Origin: Escherichia coli
GTDB lineage: Bacteria; Pseudomonadota; Gammaproteobacteria; Enterobacterales; Enterobacteriaceae
DNA length: 64,000 bases
Direction: 5' to 3' (one strand)
Assembly: GCF_036507355.1 (NCBI RefSeq)
Contig: NZ_AP027877.1
The translations under genes were made by a program, and so were the position numbers. Shown in pieces: positions 6,419 to 25,106 of the stretch. Each line of letters starts with the position of its first letter. The stretch's first letter is position 1. Below the pieces are notes generated by a model. It saw only the letters and a list, made by a program, of their open reading frames with translations. It had not been told where the DNA came from and did not search any database.

Positions 6419-8059
6419 TTACGCGTTTTTCAGAACTTCGCTAACAATCTCAACCGCTTCTTTCTCAATCTGCTTGCGATGTTCTTCACCGAGGAAGCTT
6501 TCGCAGTAGATCTTATATGCGTCTTCCGTGCCTGACGGACGCGCGGCGAACCAGCCGTTGTCAGTCATCACTTTCAGACCGCCAATAGAAGCACCGTTGC
6601 CCGGAGCAGCAGTCAGGCGCGCGGTGATCGGGTCACCTGCCAGGGTGCTGGCGCTCACCATTTCCGGAGACAGCTTAGACAGCGCCGCTTTTTGTGCGGA
6701 AGTCGCAGCTGCCTGCAAACGGTTGTAGCTCGGCGCACCAAAGCGTTTTGCCAGTTCGTTGTAGTGTTCCTGCGGGTTCTTACCGGTGACAGCGGTGATT
6801 TCCGCCGCCAGCAGACACATGATGATGCCGTCTTTGTCGGTGGACCACGGCGTGCCGTCGAAACGCAGGAAGGAAGCCCCTGCGCTCTCTTCGCCGCCAA
6901 AGCCGAAGCTGCCGTCGAACAGACCATCAACAAACCATTTGAAACCTACCGGGACTTCTACCAGCTTACGACCCAAGTCATTGACCACACGGTCGATCAT
7001 CGCAGAAGAAACCAGCGTTTTACCAACGGCAACATCTTTGCCCCACTGCGGACGATGCTGGAACAGGTAATTGATCGCCACCGCCAGGTAGTGGTTCGGA
7101 TTCATCAAACCTGCCGGAGTGACGATACCGTGACGGTCATAATCCGGGTCGTTAGCAAAAGCCAGATCGAACTTATCACGCAGTGCCAGCAGGCCCGCCA
7201 TCGCACACTCGGAGGAGCAGTCCATACGGATCGCGCCGTCTTTATCAAGGTGCATAAAGCGGAAGGTTTGATCGACCTGATTGTTAACGATGGTCAGGTT
7301 GAGGTTGTAATACTCGCCAATACGCTTCCAGTATTCGATACCGGAACCGCCCAGCGGATCAACGCCAAGCGTCAGGCCCGCTTTCTGAATCGCCGCCATA
7401 TCAACGATATCGGCCAGCCCTTCCACGAACGGCTGCACCAGATCCTGCTCTTTCACATGACCGGATGCCATCGCTTCGTCGAGGGAGATACGCTTCACGC
7501 CTTTCAGGCCATCGGCCAGCAGTGCGTTGGCTCTGTCTTCCACCACTTTAGTGACGTTGGTATCTGCCGGGCCACCATTTGGCGGATTGTATTTGATTCC
7601 ACCATCTTCCGGCGGGTTATGGGACGGTGTAATCACGATACCGTCTGCCAGCGGGCCACCTTTTTTATTGTGAACCAGGATGGCATTGGAAACGGCAGGC
7701 GTCGGGGTGAAGCCATTGTTTTCCTGCACAATAACATCTACGCCGTTCGCTGCCAGCACTTCCAGAACGGAAATAAATGCAGGTTCGGACAGGGCGTGAG
7801 TATCTTTACCCACATAGCAAGGGCCAGTGATGCCGTTTTTCGCACGTTCTTCAGCAATTGCCTGAGCGATCGCCAGAATGTGCGGCTCGTTAAAGCTGTG
7901 GCGCGCTGCACTGCCACGGTGACCGGAAGTACCGAATTTCACCGCGTGCTCCGCATTCCCTGCTTCTGGTTTCAGTACATAATATTGCGCCGTCAGTTGG
8001 GCGACGTTAATCAAATCACTCTGTTGTGCAGGTTGGCCTGCACGATTGTGGATTGCCAT
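6419..8059 (-). CDS. pgm: Phosphoglucomutase (546 aa)
   Basis: ORF 6419..8110; ATG at 8059 gives [15 protein letters not shown]...; active-site [11 protein letters not shown] motif. Confidence 0.95.
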
Positions 8060-8084
8060 TGCTTTGTCCTTTGTCTGCAACGTT

Positions 8085-8630
8085 TTAGATAGTTCCGCAA
8101 ACCTTCTCAATCAATTCCGCCGGGAATTGCATCGACTGCATGATGTGTTCGATCATGCTGCATTTACGGCCGGTGTTGGTGTTGGTGATCACCCAATACG
8201 GCGTGCCTGGCACATGTTTCGGCTTGGTCTGATTACCATTTTTCAGCAGCGTTTGTTCATCTGCCGCAAAGTAAACGCGTGTACGACCGTGCAACGATTC
8301 CGTTGCTTCGGCAAACGCCTGGGCGTCAAGAGAATATAGTGTAGACAACAGCAGCATAAAGCGATTGACCGCTCGCTTTTGCTCTGCGTATTCATCCGAA
8401 AGCAGAAGTTCACGCATTGCGCGAACCTTGTCTTTAATCGTTTTGACCGGCTTCGCTTCGACGATAGCAGGTGACGCAACGCGAACCTCTTTCGTCACCG
8501 GAGCAGCAGGCTGTGATGCGGCGGAAAATTTCAACATACGCCGTAAAATGTCGGATGCGCTCTCGCCGATATGCTTAGTGTGGCTGGCAATATAGCTGTA
8601 GAGTTCATCATCAACTTCAATCGTTTTCAT
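8085..8630 (-). CDS. seqA: Replication-initiation negative modulator SeqA (181 aa)
   Basis: ORF 8085..8765; ATG at 8630 gives [19 protein letters not shown]...; 25 bp upstream of pgm (seqA-pgm operon). Confidence 0.93.
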
Positions 8631-8814
8631 CTTAATCCAGTGCAGTGTCTTAGCTGAATACAAGTCGCCAGGAGTATATGAATAAATCCCGGCAGCGGAT
8701 AGCGTCAAGCCTGGCTTGCAGAAAAACTCGGAATAAACCTTATTTGTTGCAGCCCTGTGGCACAATGGTCAACATAATACCCTAACCCGACAACGCGAAA
8801 AAAAGAACTTTGCC

Positions 8815-9579
8815 ATGAAATTGAATATCCGCGCGCAAACTGCACAAAACCAGCACAATAATTCTCCCATCGTTCTTGTCCATGGTCTGTTTGGCAGCCT
8901 CGACAACCTTGGCGTACTGGCTCGCGATCTGGTAAACGATCACAATACCATCCAGGTTGATATGCGTAACCACGGTCTTTCACCGAGAGATCCGGTAATG
9001 AATTACCCGACGATGGCGCAGGATCTTGTTGATACCCTGGATGCACTGCAGATCGACAAAGCAACATTTATCGGTCACTCCATGGGCGGTAAAGCGGTAA
9101 TGGCACTTACTGCACTGGCCCCCGATCGCATCGATAAACTGGTGGCGATCGATATCGCACCGGTCGACTATCACGTACGCCGTCATGATGAGATTTTCGC
9201 GGCTATCAACGCGGTCAGTGAATCGGACGCACAAACTCGCCAGCAAGCAGCAGCAATAATGCGCCAGCATCTTAATGAAGAAGGGGTGATTCAGTTTCTG
9301 TTGAAATCTTTTGTTGACGGGGAGTGGCGCTTTAACGTGCCGGTATTGTGGGATCAGTATCCGCATATTGTGGGTTGGGAGAAAATCCCGGCATGGGATC
9401 ACCCTGCCCTGTTTATCCCTGGTAGTAATTCTCCGTATGTTAGCGAGCAGTACCGTGATGATTTACTGGCACAATTTCCACAGGCACGGGCGCATGTGAT
9501 TGCAGGCGCGGGTCACTGGGTCCATGCTGAAAAACCGGATGCGGTATTACGCGCTATCCGTCGCTATCTCAATGATTAA
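8815..9579 (+). CDS. ybfF: Alpha/beta-hydrolase esterase YbfF (254 aa)
   Basis: ORF 8815..9579; nucleophile elbow GHSMGG; divergent from seqA. Confidence 0.92.
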   Translation: MKLNIRAQTAQNQHNNSPIVLVHGLFGSLDNLGVLARDLVNDHNTIQVDMRNHGLSPRDPVMNYPTMAQDLVDTLDALQIDKATFIGHSMGGKAVMALTALAPDRIDKLVAIDIAPVDYHVRRHDEIFAAINAVSESDAQTRQQAAAIMRQHLNEEGVIQFLLKSFVDGEWRFNVPVLWDQYPHIVGWEKIPAWDHPALFIPGSNSPYVSEQYRDDLLAQFPQARAHVIAGAGHWVHAEKPDAVLRAIRRYLND

Positions 9580-9718
9580 CGCAACTGATTAAAAACCCAG
9601 CGTCCGCGTCGCTTTCCGCGCGTGGGCGTTGGCGTGACTCATCGCGCTGATGTATTATGGCGCGCTATCCATCCGGGCAGAGGCCTGGCTGATTGTTTCC
9701 CCCGAAGTCACCAAGATC

Positions 9719-10012
9719 ATGGCCAAAGAACAAACGGACCGTACGACATTAGATCTGTTCGCGCACGAGCGTCGACCGGGACGACCGAAAACAAATCCGC
9801 TTTCGCGCGATGAACAGCTGCGTATTAATAAACGCAACCAGCTAAAACGCGACAAAGTACGTGGCCTTAAGCGTGTCGAACTGAAGCTGAACGCGGAAGC
9901 TGTCGAGGCGCTGAACGAGCTGGCGGAATCGCGCAATATGAGCCGTAGCGAACTGATCGAAGAGATGTTAATGCAGCAACTGGCGGCGCTGCGTAGTCAG
10001 GGCATCGTTTAA
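9719..10012 (+). CDS. ybfE: Small protein YbfE (97 aa), reported as LexA-regulated in E. coli
   Basis: ORF 9650..10012; internal ATG at 9719 gives [14 protein letters not shown]... matching the known 97-aa product; basic/coiled-coil sequence. Confidence 0.8.
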
Positions 10013-10151
10013 ATTTCCACTTTCATGTAGCACAGTGTGCAGTCCTGCTCGTTTGCTGATTCCGCAAGACTGCCTGTTCTGCTATGATTGCCTTTATCCG
10101 TGGGCAATTTTCCACCCCCATTTCAATAAGTTTCAAGAGGTTATTTCACTC

Positions 10152-10682
10152 ATGGCTATCACTGGCATCTTTTTCGGCAGCGACACCGGTAATACCGAAA
10201 ATATCGCAAAAATGATTCAAAAACAGCTTGGTAAAGACGTTGCCGATGTCCATGACATTGCAAAAAGCAGCAAAGAAGATCTGGAAGCTTATGACATTCT
10301 GCTGCTGGGCATCCCAACCTGGTATTACGGCGAAGCGCAGTGTGACTGGGATGACTTCTTCCCGACTCTCGAAGAGATTGATTTCAATGGCAAACTGGTT
10401 GCGCTGTTTGGTTGTGGTGACCAGGAAGATTACGCCGAATATTTCTGCGACGCATTGGGCACCATCCGCGACATCATTGAACCGCGCGGTGCAACCATCG
10501 TTGGTCACTGGCCAACTGCGGGCTATCATTTCGAAGCATCAAAAGGTCTGGCAGATGACGACCACTTTGTCGGTCTGGCTATCGACGAAGACCGTCAGCC
10601 GGAACTGACCGCTGAACGTGTAGAAAAATGGGTTAAACAGATTTCTGAAGAGTTGCATCTCGACGAAATTCTCAATGCCTGA
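10152..10682 (+). CDS. fldA: Flavodoxin 1 (176 aa)
   Basis: ORF 10035..10682; ATG at 10152 gives [20 protein letters not shown]...; flavodoxin FMN-binding signature. Confidence 0.95.
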
Positions 10683-10887
10683 TGTGATGCGGCGTAGACT
10701 CATGTCTACGCCGTATTAATAGATAATGCCAATCAAAATAATTGCTACAAATTTGTAACTTTTGCTGTTGTACCTGTACAATGTTCCGGTGTTCAAGTGG
10801 CCTTGCCGTTGTAAATGTAAGCTGTGCCACGTTTTTATTAACAATATTTGCCAGGGACTTGTGGTTTTCATTTAGGCGTGGCAATTC

Positions 10888-10906
10888 TATAATGATACGC
10901 ATTATC
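10888..10906 (+). promoter_or_regulatory. Fur box (fur autoregulation operator) overlapping a TATAAT hexamer
   Basis: tataatgatacgcattatc matches the 19-bp Fur consensus GATAATGATAATCATTATC at 16/19 positions, immediately 5' of uof-fur. Confidence 0.65.
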
Positions 10907-10978
10907 TCAAGAGCAAATTCTGTCACTTCTTCTAATGAAGTGAACCGCTTAGTAACAGGACAGATTCCGCATGACTGA
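10892..10978 (+). CDS. uof: uof, 28-codon upstream ORF translationally coupled to fur
   Basis: ATG at 10892 gives MIRIISRANSVTSSNEVNRLVTGQIPHD; stop overlaps the fur start by 8 nt. Confidence 0.8.
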   Translation: MIRIISRANSVTSSNEVNRLVTGQIPHD

Positions 10979-11417
10979 TAACAATACCGCCCTAAAGAAA
11001 GCTGGCCTGAAAGTAACGCTTCCACGTTTAAAAATCCTGGAAGTTCTTCAGGAGCCGGACAACCATCACGTCAGTGCGGAAGATTTATACAAACGTCTGA
11101 TCGATATGGGTGAAGAAATTGGTCTGGCTACGGTATATCGCGTACTGAACCAGTTTGACGACGCTGGTATCGTCACCCGCCACAATTTTGAAGGCGGTAA
11201 ATCCGTATTTGAACTGACACAGCAACATCACCACGATCACCTGATCTGCCTCGACTGCGGCAAGGTTATCGAATTTAGTGATGATTCCATCGAAGCGCGT
11301 CAGCGTGAAATTGCCGCAAAACATGGCATTCGCCTGACTAACCACAGTCTCTATCTTTACGGTCACTGTGCCGAAGGCGATTGCCGCGAAGATGAGCACG
11401 CGCACGAAGGCAAATAA
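10971..11417 (+). CDS. fur: Ferric uptake regulator Fur (148 aa)
   Basis: ORF 10971..11417; MTDNNTALKKAGLKVTLPRLKILEVL...; HHHDH and CxxC metal-binding motifs. Confidence 0.97.
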   Translation: MTDNNTALKKAGLKVTLPRLKILEVLQEPDNHHVSAEDLYKRLIDMGEEIGLATVYRVLNQFDDAGIVTRHNFEGGKSVFELTQQHHHDHLICLDCGKVIEFSDDSIEARQREIAAKHGIRLTNHSLYLYGHCAEGDCREDEHAHEGK

Positions 11418-11432
11418 GCCAGTCTGAACGAG

Positions 11433-11462
11433 AAAAGCCAACCTGCGGGTTGGCTTTTTTAT
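11433..11462. terminator. Bidirectional rho-independent terminator between fur (+) and chiQ (-)
   Basis: aaaagccaacctgcgggttggcttttttat: perfect GC-rich hairpin with A and T tracts. Confidence 0.8.
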
Positions 11463-11500
11463 GCAAGGGAAATAAGAAAAGCGAGAGTTACAGCTCTCAC

Positions 11501-11827
11501 TTATTTGTTATTACTGCGAATTTCCTGCCAGACCTTATCACAATCGGCTTTCACCGCCTGATCATTTCCGGTTTGCGTTGCACGCAGACACTGCTGATAA
11601 TCCAGTACGCGTACACTTTCCTGGTCGGCAAACTGCTGATGTTGTTTCTCTTTCTTCAGCACGTTTAACACGCTCTGGCAGGCTTCAATTTTTTCTGGCG
11701 AACCTTGTGCGGTGTTGATACAGGCGCTGTATGCCTCTTTCAGACGGCTGTCTTCCTGTGGCGCGGTTGATTGCGCACAAGCCACCAGCCCCGATGCCAT
11801 CATGGCGATGAGAATCAGTTTTTTCAT
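11501..11827 (-). CDS. chiQ: Lipoprotein ChiQ/YbfN (108 aa), distal gene of the chiPQ operon
   Basis: ORF 11501..11827; signal peptide with lipobox LVAC-A; 49 bp downstream of chiP. Confidence 0.88.
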   Translation of the reverse strand: MKKLILIAMMASGLVACAQSTAPQEDSRLKEAYSACINTAQGSPEKIEACQSVLNVLKKEKQHQQFADQESVRVLDYQQCLRATQTGNDQAVKADCDKVWQEIRSNNK

Positions 11828-11876
11828 AGCAAATTCCTCAAACGTGCGGCAGGCACAAAACCTGCCGCGTCGGGCA

Positions 11877-13283
11877 TCAGAAGATGGTGAATGGTGCGAT
11901 TACCATAAATTTCACGTCACGCTCATCCTGGAAGATGTTGCCGTAACCACCGCCCCAGCTTGGGATGTCGGAGTGGTTGTCGTATTCGGTGAAATGCAGT
12001 TTGAACATCGTGCCTTTGGCGCGGCCGTCCTGAATGGTGTAGACCGCATCCAGGCTGTATGCAGACTCTTCAATAGTCCGGTTTTTGTCGTAGTACGCAT
12101 CCGGATTGCTCTGCCAGGTCGCAGGTTTAGCATCCCATGCGTAAACGTAGGAAGCGCCGATGGCGAAGCCTGGAAGATTCCAGTTTTTCAGGTCATACAT
12201 CGCACCGAAGAAGACCGCTTTTTCGCCGTTGGCGTTGAAGTCAGAACGGTTATCCCACCAGATATCCAGGCGACCGTTCGAGGAAGCGTAGGTTGGAGTC
12301 ATACGTTGCAGGAAGTATCCCTGCTGACCGTCAGCTTTAACCCAGGTGCCTTCGAGGCGCAAATCCACTACGTCAGCCGCCCGGTAACCAAAGGTCAACG
12401 CTTGCAGCCAGGCGGTGCCGTCATAAAGATCGTTGACGCTGCGATCGTCAACTTTATCGCGCGTACCGTAGAACTGGTAGCTGGTGGTTAACGGGCTACC
12501 GGCGATATCAAATTTGTAGCTGGCTTTGGCAAAGTATTGATCGATATACCCTTCCGCCTGACCAAATGCCGCTTCCAGTACGAAGTTATTTTTGAAGTCG
12601 TATTTCGCACCGATGGAGTGCAGATAATCAACTTTGGTAGTTTTATCGTTCTGATAAAACTCATCCATTTCCAGATGCCACGGTGCTTTGTATTCGTTGG
12701 TCCACATGTAGGAGAAACTCAACGCACCGGCATCGCCGTAATCAAAATTCGCTCCGGCTTCCGCACCCTGATAGGTACCTGGCATAAAGCTCCAGTGCGG
12801 CGCTAACAGCGTCTGACCGGTTGGCTGAATATAACCTGCCCTCGCCCAAACCGGACCGTATTTAAATTTGGCCGCAGCTTTATACAGGCTTATACCGCTT
12901 TTGTCGCCGGACCAGTCTTCGTCATAGGCTTTATTACTTTTTGAAAACGCGATTTCGTTCGGGTGAGAGCTGTCGCCGTTTTCCGCCATTTCAATCGCCG
13001 TAAACGCAGCAATATCAAGGCCGAACATATCAGCAGCATAACCGGACTGAAAATCGAGGTTGGCATTCCAGGTGGAGTGAGAAAGGTTGGTTTTGTATTT
13101 GTCGCCGTCGGTAACATCTTTACGGTCGCGTTCACGCTGCCAGTAATATATACCGCCGGTTAAGGTTGAATCGTCGATGAATCCTTCGGCGCGAGCCTCC
13201 GGCATTGCCATAAAGCCCGACATTGCTGTAACACCGGCGATAGCCAGCGCCAGCGTACTACGTTTGCCACTAAACGTACGCAT
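11877..13283 (-). CDS. chiP: Chitooligosaccharide-specific outer-membrane porin ChiP/YbfM (468 aa)
   Basis: ORF 11877..13283; signal peptide, OprD-like beta-barrel with C-terminal aromatic residue (F). Confidence 0.93.
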
Positions 13284-13400
13284 GGGTTAATCCTCTTTGA
13301 CGTATAAATTGCTGCACCAAAGGTGAACAGCGAAAAAAAATAAAAATTAAAAAAGTAGCGTTGAGAAAAGTCTCGCTGACTACAGGAACAGACTATTTTT
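13284..13400 (-). promoter_or_regulatory. chiP 5' leader and promoter-proximal region (expected ChiX sRNA pairing site and NagC control)
   Basis: AT-rich untranslated region directly upstream of the chiP start; regulation inferred from E. coli/Salmonella literature, not demonstrated here. Confidence 0.4.
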
Positions 13401-13632
13401 CGCGACGCGAATTATCAATCTCTTTCTGTAACCAGAATGTAAGAACATGAGCAACCGCACATATTTTGATGATTTTTGTTACAAGGCTTAAGTTTGCGGT
13501 TGAAAGGCTTGCAGAAGAATAAAAGCGTGAATTTCCAGCAAGATGAAAGCGGTTACATTTTATTTAATTATGTTTTGTTATTTTAAATTTATTTTATGGA
13601 TAAATTGCGAAGCGGAATTAATTCGCGAAGAA

Positions 13633-13665
13633 AAGCAGAAAAAACGCCGCTGAACGCGGCGTTTT
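13633..13665 (-). terminator. Rho-independent terminator of glnS
   Basis: Minus strand reads hairpin aacgccgcgttcagcggcgtt followed by a T-run, downstream of the glnS stop. Confidence 0.7.
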
Positions 13666-13685
13666 GGATTGTTTGCATATTTCTT

Positions 13686-13849
13686 GCCGGATGCGGCGTG
13701 AACGCCTTATCCGGCCTACAAAAGCACGCAAACTCAATATATTGCAGAGATCATGTAGGCCTGATAAGCGTAGCGCATCAGGCAATTTAGCGTTTGAAAC
13801 TGTTTGTCTGTTCCTTGCCGGATGTGGCGTAAATGCCTCACCCGGCCTG
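13686..13849. repeat. Cluster of three REP elements (BIME-like)
   Basis: gccggatgcggcgtgaacgccttatccggcctac / gtaggcctgataagcgtagcgcatcaggc / gccggatgtggcgtaaatgcctcacccggcctg. Confidence 0.85.
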
Positions 13850-13862
13850 GTAGAACTTAAAA

Positions 13863-15527
13863 TTACTCGCCTACTTTCGCCCAGGTATCACGCAGCCCAA
13901 CGGTGCGGTTAAATACCGGTTTTTCCGCCGTGGAATGGCGACTGTCGAGGCAGAAGTAACCTTCACGCTCAAACTGGAATGCTTTACCCGCTACCGCATC
14001 TTTCAGCGACGGTTCAGCAAAGCCCTGTTTGATCACCAGCGATTCAGGGTTAATCACCGACAGGAAATCATCCGCAGCACCTGGGTTCGGCACGCTGAAC
14101 AGACGGTCATACAAACGGATTTCAACCGGCAGCGCATGTGCCGCGCTCACCCAGTGAATAACGCCTTTCACTTTACGACCATCAGCCGGATCTTTGCTTA
14201 AGGTGTCGGCGTCATAAGTACAGAAGATGGTGGTGATATTACCTTCGGCATCTTTCTCGACGCGTTCTGCCTTAATCACATAAGCATTACGCAGACGCAC
14301 TTCTTTACCGAGCACCAGACGTTTGTACTGCTTGTTAGCTTCTTCGCGGAAATCGGCGCGATCGATCCAAATCTCACCGCTAAACGGCACCTGACGGCTC
14401 CCCATTTCCGGTTTGTTCGGATGGTTCGGCATGGTAACCATTTCGCCTTCGCCCTGATAGTTTTCGATAACCAGTTTCACCGGATCGATAACCGCCATTG
14501 CGCGCGGGGCGTTTTCGTTGAGATCTTCACGGATGCAGGATTCCAGCGACGCCATCTCAATGGTGTTGTCCTGCTTGGTCACGCCGATGCGTTTGCAGAA
14601 CTCACGAATAGAAGCCGCAGTGTAACCACGACGACGCAGACCGGAAATGGTCGGCATACGCGGGTCATCCCAGCCTTCAACGTGCTTATCGGTCACCAGC
14701 AGGTTCAGCTTACGCTTGGACATCACAGTGTATTCCAGATTCAGGCGCGAGAATTCGTATTGGCGCGGGTGAACAGGAATGGTGATGTTGTCCAGTACCC
14801 AGTCGTACAGACGACGGTTATCCTGGAACTCAAGCGTACACAGAGAGTGCGTAATACCTTCCAGGGCATCGCTGATGCAGTGGGTGAAGTCGTACATCGG
14901 GTAGATGCACCACTTGTTGCCAGTCTGGTGGTGTTCAGCAAATTTAATGCGGTACAGCACCGGATCGCGCATCACGATAAACGGTGAAGCCATGTCGATT
15001 TTCGCACGCAGGCAGGCTTTACCTTCTTCAAAACCGCCGGTACGCATTTTCTCGAACAGCGCCAGGTTCTCTTCAACGCTACGGTCGCGGTACGGGCTGT
15101 TTTTACCCGGCTGCGTCAGGGTGCCGCGGTATTCGCGGATCTGTTCCGGCGTCAGTTCATCAACGTACGCCAGGCCTTTATTGATCAGTTCGATCGCATA
15201 GGCGTGGAGCTGATCAAAATAATCGGAGGAGTAACGGACGTTACCAGACCAGTGAAAACCTAACCACTCTACGTCGTTTTTGATCGAATCGACATACTCG
15301 ATATCTTCTTTTACCGGGTTAGTGTCGTCGAAACGCAGGTTGCACTGGCCTTTATAGTCCTGGGCGATCCCGAAGTTCAGGCAGATAGATTTCGCATGGC
15401 CAATATGCAGATAGCCATTCGGCTCCGGCGGGAAACGGGTGTGTACTGTGGTGTGCTTACCACTGGCCAGATCTTCATCGATGATCTGACGGATAAAGTT
15501 AGTCGGGCGGGCTTCTGCCTCACTCAT
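13863..15527 (-). CDS. glnS: Glutaminyl-tRNA synthetase (554 aa)
   Basis: ORF 13863..15527; class I HIGH (LHIGHAKS) and KMSKS-type (VMSKR) motifs. Confidence 0.97.
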
Positions 15528-15649
15528 CGTGGATTCCTCAAAGCGTAAACAACGTATAACGGCGTATGATCTTATAAGCGGGACAGGCTGACAACTGTTA
15601 GTTAGCGAAAATCGAAAATCTCACTGAGATTATGGGGATGATTGACGAA

Positions 15650-15690
15650 AAAAAAAGCGGCAGAGAAGATCTCCACCGCTTTTGCCAGTC
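15650..15690 (-). terminator. Rho-independent terminator of nagE
   Basis: Minus strand reads hairpin gcggtggagatcttctctgccgc followed by a T9 tract. Confidence 0.7.
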
Positions 15691-15703
15691 CCGCGTCATT
15701 GTT

Positions 15704-15777
15704 GGATGCGCGTCTTATCCAACCAGGACTGAGCTTTTGTAGGCCTGATAAGACGCGTCAAGCGTCGCATCAGGCAT
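15704..15777. repeat. REP elements
   Basis: ggatgcgcgtcttatccaacc ... gtaggcctgataagacgcgtcaagcgtcgcatcaggcat. Confidence 0.8.
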
Positions 15778-15785
15778 AAAGCAGA

Positions 15786-17732
15786 TTACTTTTTGATTTC
15801 ATACAGCGGCGTTTGACCCGCCACAACATGCCCCTGAGCTTTAATGATAAGGCCACTGAAATCGTCGATATTGCTGCAAACCACCGGGCTAATCATCGAA
15901 CGGGCGTTAGCGTTCAGGTAATCCAGATCCATTTCCAGAATCGGTTGCCCTGCGCTTACCTGCGCGCCCTCTTCCACCAGACGTTTAAAGCCTTTACCTT
16001 CCAGCGCTACGGTGTCGATACCCATGTGGACGACAATCTCCGCGCCTTTTTCGGTTTCCAGGCAGAACGCGTGGTTGGTGTTGAAGATTTTCACGATTGT
16101 CCCTGCGGCTGGTGATACGACGATTTTATCTGTCGGTTTCACCGCCACACCGTCACCCACCGCTTTGCTGGCGAATGCTTCGTCAGGAACCTGATCCAGT
16201 GCCACGACATCACCGGTAATCGGCGATACCAGCTCCGCGATAGATACCGCGTTTGGTACAGCCTGCGGTTTTGCTACAGGAGCGGCAGTTGCCGGAGTTG
16301 CTTCAGCAGAGGCAGCTGCTACCGGGCCACGGGCAACGACTTTCTTCATCGCATCGCCGATGGATTCTGCTTTCGCGCCAACAATCACCTGAATAGTCTG
16401 TTTGTTCAGTTTTACTACCCCAGAAGCCCCCAGACGTTTACACATCGTATCGTTAACGCGGGCAGAGTCAGCCACTGTAAGGCGCAGACGGGTGATACAG
16501 GCGTCAATTGCTTTCAGGTTGTCAGTGCCGCCAACCGCAGCAATATAGTTGGTCGCCAGTTGATTGAGGCCTTCTTCAGTGTTGCTGTTGGCTTCTTCAG
16601 TAACGATCTCATCTTCTTTATCTTCACGACCCGGCGTTTTCAGGTTGAACATGCGGATAACCAAACTGAACACCACGAAGTAGATAGCGAAGAAGACAAC
16701 ACCCATCACCAGCAGCATCCAGACGTTCTGGCTGGCGGCCGGCAGGTTATACATCAACGCGTAGTCGATAGCCCCCGCAGAGAAAGAGAAGCCGGCATGG
16801 ATACCCAGCAGCGTTGCCACAAACAGGCTGATACCGGTCAGCAGTGCGTGCAGGAGGTACAGCAGCGGAGCAAGGAACATGAACAGGAATTCCAGCGGCT
16901 CAGTCACACCGGTCAGGAACGCAGTAACAGCAACAGAAAGCAGCATCCCGCCAACCATCGGACGACGCTCTTTCGGTGCTGCGAAGTACATCGCCAGCGC
17001 CGCACCCGGCAGACCGAACATCATGATCGGGAAGAAGCCGGACATGAACATCCCCGCGGTGCCGTCACCAGCGTAGAAACGGTTGATGTCGCCGTGGAAA
17101 ACCGTACCCGCCGCGTTGGTGAATTCACCAATCTGGAACCAGGCGATGGTGTTCAGCACCTGATGCAGACCGGTTGGGATCAGCAGACGGTTGATGAAAC
17201 CAAAGATACCGGAACCCAGCGCGCCCGCAGAAACGATCCACTCGCCGCCTGCATGGATAGCGTGCTGTACCGGCGGCCAGACATAACCAAAAATGGCCGC
17301 CAGCACCAGGCAGAAGAAGCCGGTGGCGATCGGCACAAAGCGTTTGCCGCCAAAGAAGCTCAGGAAGTCCGGCAGTTTAATATCGGACCAACGGTTATAG
17401 GCTGCGCCACCAACCAGACCGGTAATGATACCCGCCAGTACACCCATGTTAATTTCTGGGTTGATGGTCACCATCGCTTTGGTTAACACAAAGTAACCTA
17501 CCGCACCCGCCAGCGCCGCCGCACCTGCGCTGTCTTTCGACCAGCTGGATGCCACACCGATGGCGAAGATTAATGCGAGGTTATCAAAAATCGCACCGCC
17601 CGCCTGGGCAATAAACGCAACGTTAAGTAAATCTGGCTGACCGAATCGCAGCAACAGTGCCGCCACCGGCAGCACCGCGATAGGGAGCTGTAACGCCCTA
17701 CCGAGTCGCTGGAAAAAACCTAAAATATTCAT
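15786..17732 (-). CDS. nagE: PTS N-acetylglucosamine-specific EIICBA component (648 aa)
   Basis: ORF 15786..17732; N-terminal polytopic EIIC, central EIIB, C-terminal EIIA domain. Confidence 0.96.
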   Translation of the reverse strand: MNILGFFQRLGRALQLPIAVLPVAALLLRFGQPDLLNVAFIAQAGGAIFDNLALIFAIGVASSWSKDSAGAAALAGAVGYFVLTKAMVTINPEINMGVLAGIITGLVGGAAYNRWSDIKLPDFLSFFGGKRFVPIATGFFCLVLAAIFGYVWPPVQHAIHAGGEWIVSAGALGSGIFGFINRLLIPTGLHQVLNTIAWFQIGEFTNAAGTVFHGDINRFYAGDGTAGMFMSGFFPIMMFGLPGAALAMYFAAPKERRPMVGGMLLSVAVTAFLTGVTEPLEFLFMFLAPLLYLLHALLTGISLFVATLLGIHAGFSFSAGAIDYALMYNLPAASQNVWMLLVMGVVFFAIYFVVFSLVIRMFNLKTPGREDKEDEIVTEEANSNTEEGLNQLATNYIAAVGGTDNLKAIDACITRLRLTVADSARVNDTMCKRLGASGVVKLNKQTIQVIVGAKAESIGDAMKKVVARGPVAAASAEATPATAAPVAKPQAVPNAVSIAELVSPITGDVVALDQVPDEAFASKAVGDGVAVKPTDKIVVSPAAGTIVKIFNTNHAFCLETEKGAEIVVHMGIDTVALEGKGFKRLVEEGAQVSAGQPILEMDLDYLNANARSMISPVVCSNIDDFSGLIIKAQGHVVAGQTPLYEIKK

Positions 17733-17853
17733 CTTATTCCCCCTACGAGAACCCTATTTGGCTCGTTTAAAGCCGTATTTTTATTGTGCTGCAAATTGTA
17801 CTGCCGATGTTCTGTAATCAGATTGTTAGATCATCTGCCACAGAGTGTGTGAA

Positions 17854-17878
17854 AATTTAATTCGTATCGCAAATTAAA
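17854..17878. promoter_or_regulatory. Candidate NagC operator (nagE-proximal)
   Basis: aatttaattcgtatcgcaaattaaa, an AT-rich dyad (TTAATTCG...CGCAAATTAA) resembling described NagC operators. Confidence 0.5.
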
Positions 17879-17886
17879 CGCGTGTC

Positions 17887-17908
17887 TTTTGTGAGTTTTG
17901 TCACCAAA
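17887..17908. promoter_or_regulatory. CRP binding site in the nagE/nagB divergent promoter region
   Basis: tTGTGAgttttgTCACc matches the TGTGA-N6-TCACA consensus. Confidence 0.6.
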
Positions 17909-18064
17909 TATCGTTATCATCACTCCCTTTTACTGGCTAAATCAGAAAACTTATTTTATCATTCAAAAAATCAGGTCGGATTGACGCCTGTCTGCGCAAA
18001 TCCAAGTTACGCTTAAAGATGCCTAATCCGCCAACGGCTTACATTTTACTTATTGAGGTGAATA

Positions 18065-20073
<2,009 letters not shown>

Positions 20074-24402: not shown

Positions 24403-24479
24403 GGCTACGTAGCTCAGTTGGTTAGAGCACATCACTCATAATGATGGGGTCACAGGTTCGAATCCCGTCGTAGCCACCA
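24403..24479 (+). tRNA. metT: tRNA-Met (anticodon CAU, elongator)
   Basis: GGCTACGTAGCTCAGTTGG...CGTCGTAGCCACCA; cloverleaf with anticodon loop cuCAUaa; encoded CCA. Confidence 0.95.
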
Positions 24480-24487
24480 TCTTTTTT

Positions 24488-24572
24488 GCGGGAGTGGCGA
24501 AATTGGTAGACGCACCAGATTTAGGTTCTGGCGCCGCAAGGTGTGCGAGTTCAAGTCTCGCCTCCCGCACCA
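24488..24572 (+). tRNA. leuW: tRNA-Leu (anticodon UAG), class II with long variable arm
   Basis: GCGGGAGTGGCGAAATTGG...CTCGCCTCCCGCACCA; anticodon loop uuUAGgu. Confidence 0.95.
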
Positions 24573-24595
24573 TTCACCAGAAAGCGTTGTACGGA

Positions 24596-24670
24596 TGGGG
24601 TATCGCCAAGCGGTAAGGCACCGGTTTTTGATACCGGCATTCCCTGGTTCGAATCCAGGTACCCCAGCCA
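24596..24670 (+). tRNA. glnU: tRNA-Gln (anticodon UUG)
   Basis: TGGGGTATCGCCAAGCGGTAAGGCACCGGTTTTTGATACCGG...CCCCAGCCA. Confidence 0.95.
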
Positions 24671-24704
24671 TCTTCTTCGAGTAAGCGGTTCACCGCCCGG
24701 TTAT

Positions 24705-24779
24705 TGGGGTATCGCCAAGCGGTAAGGCACCGGTTTTTGATACCGGCATTCCCTGGTTCGAATCCAGGTACCCCAGCCA
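24705..24779 (+). tRNA. glnW: tRNA-Gln (anticodon UUG), duplicate of the preceding gene
   Basis: Same sequence as glnU; the upstream spacer is also duplicated. Confidence 0.95.
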
Positions 24780-24794
24780 TCGAAGAAACAATCT

Positions 24795-24871
24795 GGCTAC
24801 GTAGCTCAGTTGGTTAGAGCACATCACTCATAATGATGGGGTCACAGGTTCGAATCCCGTCGTAGCCACCA
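24795..24871 (+). tRNA. metU: tRNA-Met (anticodon CAU, elongator), second copy
   Basis: Same sequence as metT. Confidence 0.95.
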
Positions 24872-24919
24872 AATTCTGAATGTGTCGAATATGTTCGGCA
24901 AATTCAAAAACCAATTTGT

Positions 24920-24994
24920 TGGGGTATCGCCAAGCGGTAAGGCACCGGATTCTGATTCCGGCATTCCGAGGTTCGAATCCTCGTACCCCAGCCA
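24920..24994 (+). tRNA. glnV: tRNA-Gln (anticodon CUG)
   Basis: TGGGGTATCGCCAAGCGGTAAGGCACCGGATTCTGATTCCGG...CCCCAGCCA. Confidence 0.95.
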
Positions 24995-25031
24995 ATTTAT
25001 TCAAGACGCTTACCTTGTAAGTGCACCCAGT

Positions 25032-25106
25032 TGGGGTATCGCCAAGCGGTAAGGCACCGGATTCTGATTCCGGCATTCCGAGGTTCGAATCCTCGTACCC
25101 CAGCCA
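25032..25106 (+). tRNA. glnX: tRNA-Gln (anticodon CUG), second copy
   Basis: Same sequence as glnV. Confidence 0.95.

Follow-up and report, generated by a model that had tools for sequence, protein, structure and literature searches.

The 288-nt interval between fldA and fur in the Escherichia coli DNA analysed here (64,000 nucleotides of contig NZ_AP027877.1, RefSeq assembly GCF_036507355.1; hereafter the window) is very probably the fldA-uof-fur control region with tiered promoters, and a perfect dyad within it is no separate element. The dyad had been left with no obvious assignment in a preliminary description made from the sequence alone, but its right arm turned out to be the -10 region of Puof, the promoter upstream of the leader ORF uof, and its left arm to be non-conserved promoter spacer. 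Below we lay out the transcription starts and conservation data that bear on this assignment, along with the operators, the leader peptide and the leader RNA structure of the same region.

Results

Reading of the sequence gave the gene order fldA, 288-nt intergenic region and fur, all on the + strand (Table 1). By megablast, positions 10600-11000 were matched in 5424 of the 5426 complete E. coli genomes, in which the matched stretch bears the annotations fldA, 'uof: fur leader peptide' and fur; the best identity of the window to any complete E. coli genome was 99.3% over 12 kb. The fldA-uof-fur region of K-12 MG1655 has the same annotated genes, start sites and Fur box as the window, and the uof ORF is 100% identical to K-12 b4637, the 'RyhB-regulated fur leader peptide'. 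Besides uof, the K-12 system comprises Puof, Pfur (a and b) and the Fur box, with OxyR, SoxS, CRP, RyhB and MiaB as regulators. The fur control region, uof, the promoters and the regulators are all known already in E. coli and appear in the RefSeq annotation. The sole difference between the window and K-12 MG1655 over 10640-11000 is a single base, T10785 (C in K-12), at -4 of Puof; a T at this position occurs in only 3 of the 5426 complete E. coli genomes, and it is present too in the divergent E. coli strain SCPM-O-B-8794. Two further observations concern other parts of the window: seven tRNA genes (Met, Leu, Gln, Gln, Met, Gln, Gln) lie on the + strand at 24403-25106, a cluster that we take to resemble the E. 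coli metT-leuW-glnUW-metU-glnVX cluster, and a short segment within 8000-20000, presumably a REP-type element or another dispersed repeat, has matches at about 37 sites in each E. coli genome.

Table 1. Features of the fldA-uof-fur region in window coordinates. Numbers in the names of 5' ends refer to U00096.2.
Feature	Position	Strand	Basis and remarks
fldA (flavodoxin 1) CDS	10152-10682	+	ORF and translation; annotated fldA in K-12 and other E. coli
fldA 3' stem-loop	10685-10718	+	-26 kcal/mol, z = -4.9
OxyR-type motif ATAG-N7-CAAT-N7-ATTG-N7-TTTG	10719-10755		Predicted; 14/20; abuts Puof -35
Puof -35 TTGTAA	10753-10758	+	Promoter scan; kept as TT(G/T)TAAC across species
5' end 710082	10758	+	5 reads; minor (PMC3415461)
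Puof -10 TACAAT	10777-10782	+	Promoter scan; CTGTACAAT nearly invariant in 76 Enterobacterales sequences
5' end 710051	G10789	+	8 reads; assigned uof; 103-nt leader; 7 nt after TACAAT (PMC3415461)
CRP-like site AAATGTAAGCTGTGCCACGTTT	10813-10834		13/16 of the CRP consensus; no other site in 64 kb scores as high
Pfur -35 TTTTCA	10865-10870	+	Promoter scan
Pfur -10 TATAAT	10888-10893	+	Promoter scan; 76-sequence alignment
Fur box, autoregulatory operator	10888-10906		16/19; covers -10, start 10901 and uof ATG
uof leader ORF	10892-10978	+	28 codons (MIRIISRANSVTSSNEVNRLVTGQIPHD); ATG 10892, TGA 10976-10978; UCA codon 6 (10907-10909)
5' end 709939	A10901	+	46 reads; 70-nt leader; 8 nt after TATAAT (Kim 2012, PMC3415461)
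RNA hairpin TCACTTC / GAAGTGA	10923-10943	+	7-8 bp; inside uof and the fur leader
fur Shine-Dalgarno AGGA	10957-10960	+	Sequence reading; AACAGGAC invariant across species
5' end 709876	10964	+	28 reads; 7 nt before fur ATG (PMC3415461)
fur CDS	10971-11417	+	148-aa ORF; annotated fur

Four 5' ends are listed at this locus by Kim 2012 (Table S1, PMC3415461), and these were converted from U00096.2 to window positions by means of the upstream sequences printed there, as with end 710051, whose printed upstream sequence ends in ...CTGTACAATGTCCCGG and which is placed at G10789. The end with the most reads, A10901, is the first base of uof codon 4 (AUU), and the most abundant fur transcript lacks the uof AUG. 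As argued in the preliminary description, uof needs transcripts started further upstream, because the Pfur start falls 9 nt past its ATG (A10892), and the uof start is indeed covered by a mapped transcript, which begins at 10789, 103 nt upstream of the ATG. The description was half right about the origin of such long transcripts: read-through from fldA, which it had proposed, stands, but it had missed the dedicated promoter Puof. The 5' end at A10964 falls past the fur Shine-Dalgarno sequence and may have arisen by processing.

Puof shows a sigma-70 layout (TTGTAA, an 18-nt spacer and TACAAT, 9/12), and both of its hexamers are conserved in the 76-sequence alignment described below. Its start site comes from one genome-wide data set (8 reads) together with statements in secondary papers. 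According to PMC6191717, Pfur lies within the uof ORF and Puof ahead of it, promoters have been described for fldA and uof along with two for fur (PMC7867234), and ybfE-fldA-uof-fur are co-transcribed, with three promoters feeding the unit (PMC4161252). No entry for this locus was found in the supplements of the Cappable-seq and SMRT-Cappable-seq papers or of Conway 2014.

Upstream of Puof, the stem-loop at the 3' end of fldA has a median folding energy of -20.7 kcal/mol across 70 species, and its stem covaries across genera, with several pair types per position (e.g. AU:27 / GC:24). The stem is G+C-rich, but it is followed by UAUUAAUAG and has no U tract; a terminator scan did not call it, and we rejected it as a canonical intrinsic terminator for its lack of a U tract. 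This lack is consistent with leaky termination and with the documented fldA-fur co-transcript, and we infer that the hairpin is a leaky terminator, or else a 3'-end stabiliser. Long transcripts would then have two sources, read-through of the fldA 3' hairpin and the sigma-70 promoter Puof, and only these long transcripts would carry the uof AUG.

The perfect dyad TTGTAC-CT-GTACAA is present exactly where the preliminary description had put it, at 10768-10781, and spans -21 to -8 of Puof. When the 296-nt region was shuffled 1000 times with dinucleotides preserved, 56% of the shuffles contained one or more perfect inverted repeats (6-bp arms, spacer 0-10; mean 1.06 per shuffle), and the 64-kb window holds 262 such 6-bp inverted repeats, of which 18 have a 2-nt spacer. 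The symmetry of the dyad is not beyond chance, as one such repeat is expected in 296 nt. To follow the two arms across species, fldA-fur spacers were taken from 80 Enterobacterales genomes, and 75 of them were aligned with the window to give 76 sequences. The right arm GTACAA is retained in 65 of the 76, while the left arm TTGTAC occurs in 2 (the window and E. albertii only), and full 6/6 complementarity of the arms is likewise found in 2 of 76. Positions 10762-10773 vary freely, as opposed to CTGTACAAT and the block 10719-10760, which are nearly invariant. Within Escherichia, too, substitutions cluster in the left arm, which is altered in E. coli EC42405 (TGGTAC), while SCPM-O-B-8794 has TGTGTGCC. 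Because the symmetry is at chance level and the left half-site is unconserved across orthologous regions, we rejected the dyad as a palindromic operator. In the literature, its sequence turned up solely as part of a reporter construct and was nowhere treated as a site. The left arm is accordingly best described as a chance complement, specific to E. coli and E. albertii, in the unconstrained spacer of Puof.

The opposite reading, that the dyad is a real operator at which a dimeric or tandem-binding regulator occludes the Puof -10, has OmpR as its only candidate with any experimental hint, and we consider it very unlikely. The region does hold the repeats TGTAAC, TGTACC and TGTACA, and the OmpR consensus scores 11/20 at 10754-10773, overlapping the left arm; 499 positions in the 64 kb score this high, however, so that the match is background, and the sites recognised by OmpR are direct repeats, not dyads. 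A 304-bp E. coli fur regulatory fragment is shifted by OmpR in several steps (at sites that were left unmapped), expression of a plasmid-borne fur promoter-lacZ fusion rises 1.5- to 2-fold when ompR is mutated, two predicted OmpR sites precede the uof start, and mention is made of a genomic SELEX site upstream of uof (all PMC7867234). In light of this in vitro binding and 1.5- to 2-fold repression, sequences overlapping the dyad may have a weak regulatory role. An operator of any kind is nevertheless difficult to reconcile with a left arm that is unconserved across genera and variable within E. coli, with the expectation of one dyad by chance, and with consensus scans for LexA, TyrR and CRP, none of which gave a match on the dyad. 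An operator at Puof restricted to the E. coli and E. albertii lineage is, in our judgement, less likely than the reading considered further below, in which selection keeps a hairpin in the fur leader. The dyad could also be imagined as an RNA hairpin, since it follows the fldA hairpin and would be part of fldA read-through RNA. Its 2-nt loop is, however, sterically impossible, leaving at best a 5-bp A/U-rich stem with a 4-nt loop, its arms do not covary across species, and it is absent from transcripts starting at Puof or Pfur; we give this idea practically no credence. We thus retain the assignment of the dyad to the Puof -10 region and its unconstrained spacer.

At the OxyR-activated sigma-70 promoters of oxyS, katG and ahpC, the activator site lies directly upstream of the -35. 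The block 10719-10760, the most conserved of the fldA-fur spacer, fits this arrangement: akin to those promoters, the window has a 37-bp motif of four ATAG-like elements with 11-bp spacing that ends at the Puof -35. It differs from them in the quality of the match, the predicted motif scoring 14/20 in E. coli. The consensus used, ATAGnTnnnAnCTAT-N7-ATAGnTnnnAnCTAT, is reportedly that of Toledano from 1994; its match at 10719 is the best in the 64 kb. In 61 of 73 species the best intergenic OxyR match lies at the same offset from the -10, mostly with scores of 15-16/20 and up to 17/20, and in Erwiniaceae the motif has a perfect CTAT-N7-ATAG core. Binding and a footprint of OxyR on the fur promoter are credited to Zheng 1999 by later papers, and the Yersinia OxyR site is described as 100% identical to the E. 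coli one (PMC7867234), an identity that is plausible only in the conserved distal block 10719-10755. Together these comparisons lead us to infer that OxyR binds 10719-10755 and activates Puof.

OxyR might instead act at Pfur (at about 10811-10866), with 10719-10755 bound by another factor, possibly Fur. The second-best intergenic OxyR match lies there, at 10811-10847 (12/20), and the distal block does contain a sequence that agrees with 14 of the 19 Fur-box positions (GATAATGCCAATCAAAATA at 10722). The match at 10811, however, stops 18 nt short of the Pfur -35 and falls in poorly conserved sequence, as opposed to the site at 10719, which outscores it, abuts a -35 as is typical of OxyR-activated promoters and keeps its position in 61 of 73 species; the reported identity of the Yersinia and E. 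coli sites (PMC7867234) also speaks against a site at Pfur. We regard this alternative as unlikely and favour OxyR action at Puof. The fur region of Yersinia enterocolitica (PMC7867234) shares the fldA-fur order and a Fur box over the -10 (TATAATGAGACGCAATTGA) with the window, but it reportedly lacks a uof ORF, its fldA and fur genes are further apart (intergenic region of 368-376 bp), and induction by peroxide or paraquat was not seen. Two other sequences of the spacer may be recorded here. A perfect 12-bp palindrome, TACAAATTTGTA, lies at 10746-10757, where it overlaps both the -35 of Puof and the OxyR-type motif at its 3' end, and is broken in many genera by a G to T change. De Lorenzo is said to have described a CAP site at fur in 1988, for which the CRP-like site at 10813-10834 is a candidate by its sequence.

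Turning to Pfur, the 19-mer TATAATGATACGCATTATC at 10888-10906 agrees with the Fur consensus GATAATGATAATCATTATC at 16 of 19 positions and is the single best match among all positions on both strands of the 64 kb (next best 15), a match far above chance. The near-consensus Fur box over TATAAT that had been proposed is thereby borne out, down to its exact position. The promoter itself consists of TTTTCA, a 17-nt spacer and TATAAT, with 10/12 hexamer matches in the promoter scan, and its -35 segment GTTTTCATTT is kept in the alignment as far as Erwiniaceae. The Fur box is placed to occlude this promoter, spanning the -10 hexamer (10888-93) and the mapped start 10901, and it is said in the literature to overlap the Pfura -10 (PMC7867234). 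Fur does bind this sequence, as a gel shift was obtained on a 110-bp fur promoter fragment carrying the exact 19-mer (PMC10318462). With the box over the -10 and start site and this published binding, the earlier proposal of Fur autoregulation is well founded. Pfur would accordingly yield a short fur mRNA that starts at A10901 and lacks the uof start codon, and Fur would repress this promoter through the box across its -10 and start site. Fur-box scores of at least 14 occur at only 6 positions in the 64 kb; a second Fur-box-like sequence (14/19), at 10722-10740, overlaps the OxyR-type site upstream of Puof.

The uof ORF was also described correctly in all particulars (ATG 10892, 28 codons, 8-nt overlap with fur); the fur ATG is at 10971. 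No obvious Shine-Dalgarno sequence was seen ahead of its ATG. The overlap had further been taken as the geometry needed for translational coupling. The overlap is there, and coupling of uof and fur is published (Vecerek 2007, as cited by several papers), but the geometry does not count as independent evidence, since the fur start forces it: fur begins with ATGACTGA, which has a TGA in both non-fur frames, so that any open upstream ORF there ends 4 or 8 nt inside fur. As this follows from the conserved Met-Thr-Asp start of Fur, it is not independent evidence of design. In the published mechanism, RyhB represses through G44/C45, and decoding of the UCA codon depends on MiaB. On long transcripts, translation of fur would be coupled to that of uof through the overlapping AUGACUGA, and this coupling would, according to the literature, be tuned by RyhB and by MiaB-dependent decoding.

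Across the family, the uof frame has a patchy distribution. It is intact (28-29 codons, ending at +8) in Escherichia, most Citrobacter, Enterobacter, Kosakonia, Kluyvera and Pluralibacter, truncated or frameshifted in S. enterica arizonae, C. sedlakii, K. oxytoca, Raoultella and Atlantibacter, and reduced in most Erwiniaceae to a remnant of 4-18 codons (4 codons in Pantoea-like sequences). Where the frame is broken, the Fur box, TATAATG and the fur ribosome-binding region are conserved. Coupling of uof and fur is therefore not universal in the family. Among 23 distinct gap-free sequences, variation at the three codon positions of uof was 0.40, 0.30 and 0.43 bits, with no third-position excess. 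From this pattern the uof peptide appears unconstrained, which fits a role for the act of translation and not for its product.

The fur leader contains one stable element in its centroid fold, the hairpin at 10923-10943. RNAalifold on a plain MAFFT alignment missed this hairpin, as indels misalign its arms, and a covariance-model alignment resolved it. In the latter, which was fitted to the structure itself, both partners have changed in 6 of the 8 pairs, and 86.6% of the hairpin cells are paired, compared to 31-49% with slid partners and with 0 of 500 shuffles as high. The hairpin persists where uof is broken, in S. enterica arizonae, Klebsiella oxytoca and Raoultella. It may already be part of the structure mapping of Vecerek 2007. 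Whole-leader folds were no more stable than shuffles (z = 0.66 and 0.08) and gave no sign of a global structure occluding the fur ribosome-binding site, and a permissive Rfam scan of 10600-11100 found nothing. That selection keeps this covarying hairpin, and not the uof peptide or even its frame, is a tentative reading to which we give a small chance.

Pairing of RyhB with the leader was not recovered computationally. RNAduplex with the full RyhB and the leader gave long-loop artefacts only, and in a search with sliding 24-nt windows the best duplexes (-12.8 kcal/mol at 10807-28 and -12.1 kcal/mol at 10911-25) were within the top 13% of background windows. Complementarity indistinguishable from background agrees with the published remark that the pairing model of RyhB and the fur leader is not computationally predictable.

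Discussion

The discovery value of these results is small, as the fur region is well studied and the interpretation given to it in the preliminary description, though correct, had been established before. The useful outcome is a negative one: the dyad flagged as unexplained consists of a known promoter -10 and unconstrained spacer, and there is no need to look for a new regulator.

For the biology of fur, two points may deserve attention. Most 5' ends (46 reads versus 13) lack the uof start, and one may ask what share of Fur synthesis is actually coupled to uof. For Fur specialists, the point of interest is that the uof frame is unconserved across Enterobacteriaceae while the leader hairpin covaries. 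If selection does act on the hairpin, it would be an undescribed cis element of the post-transcriptional control of fur, for instance a 5'-end stabiliser of the Pfur transcript or an Hfq/RyhB platform, and coupling through uof would be a lineage-restricted overlay on it.
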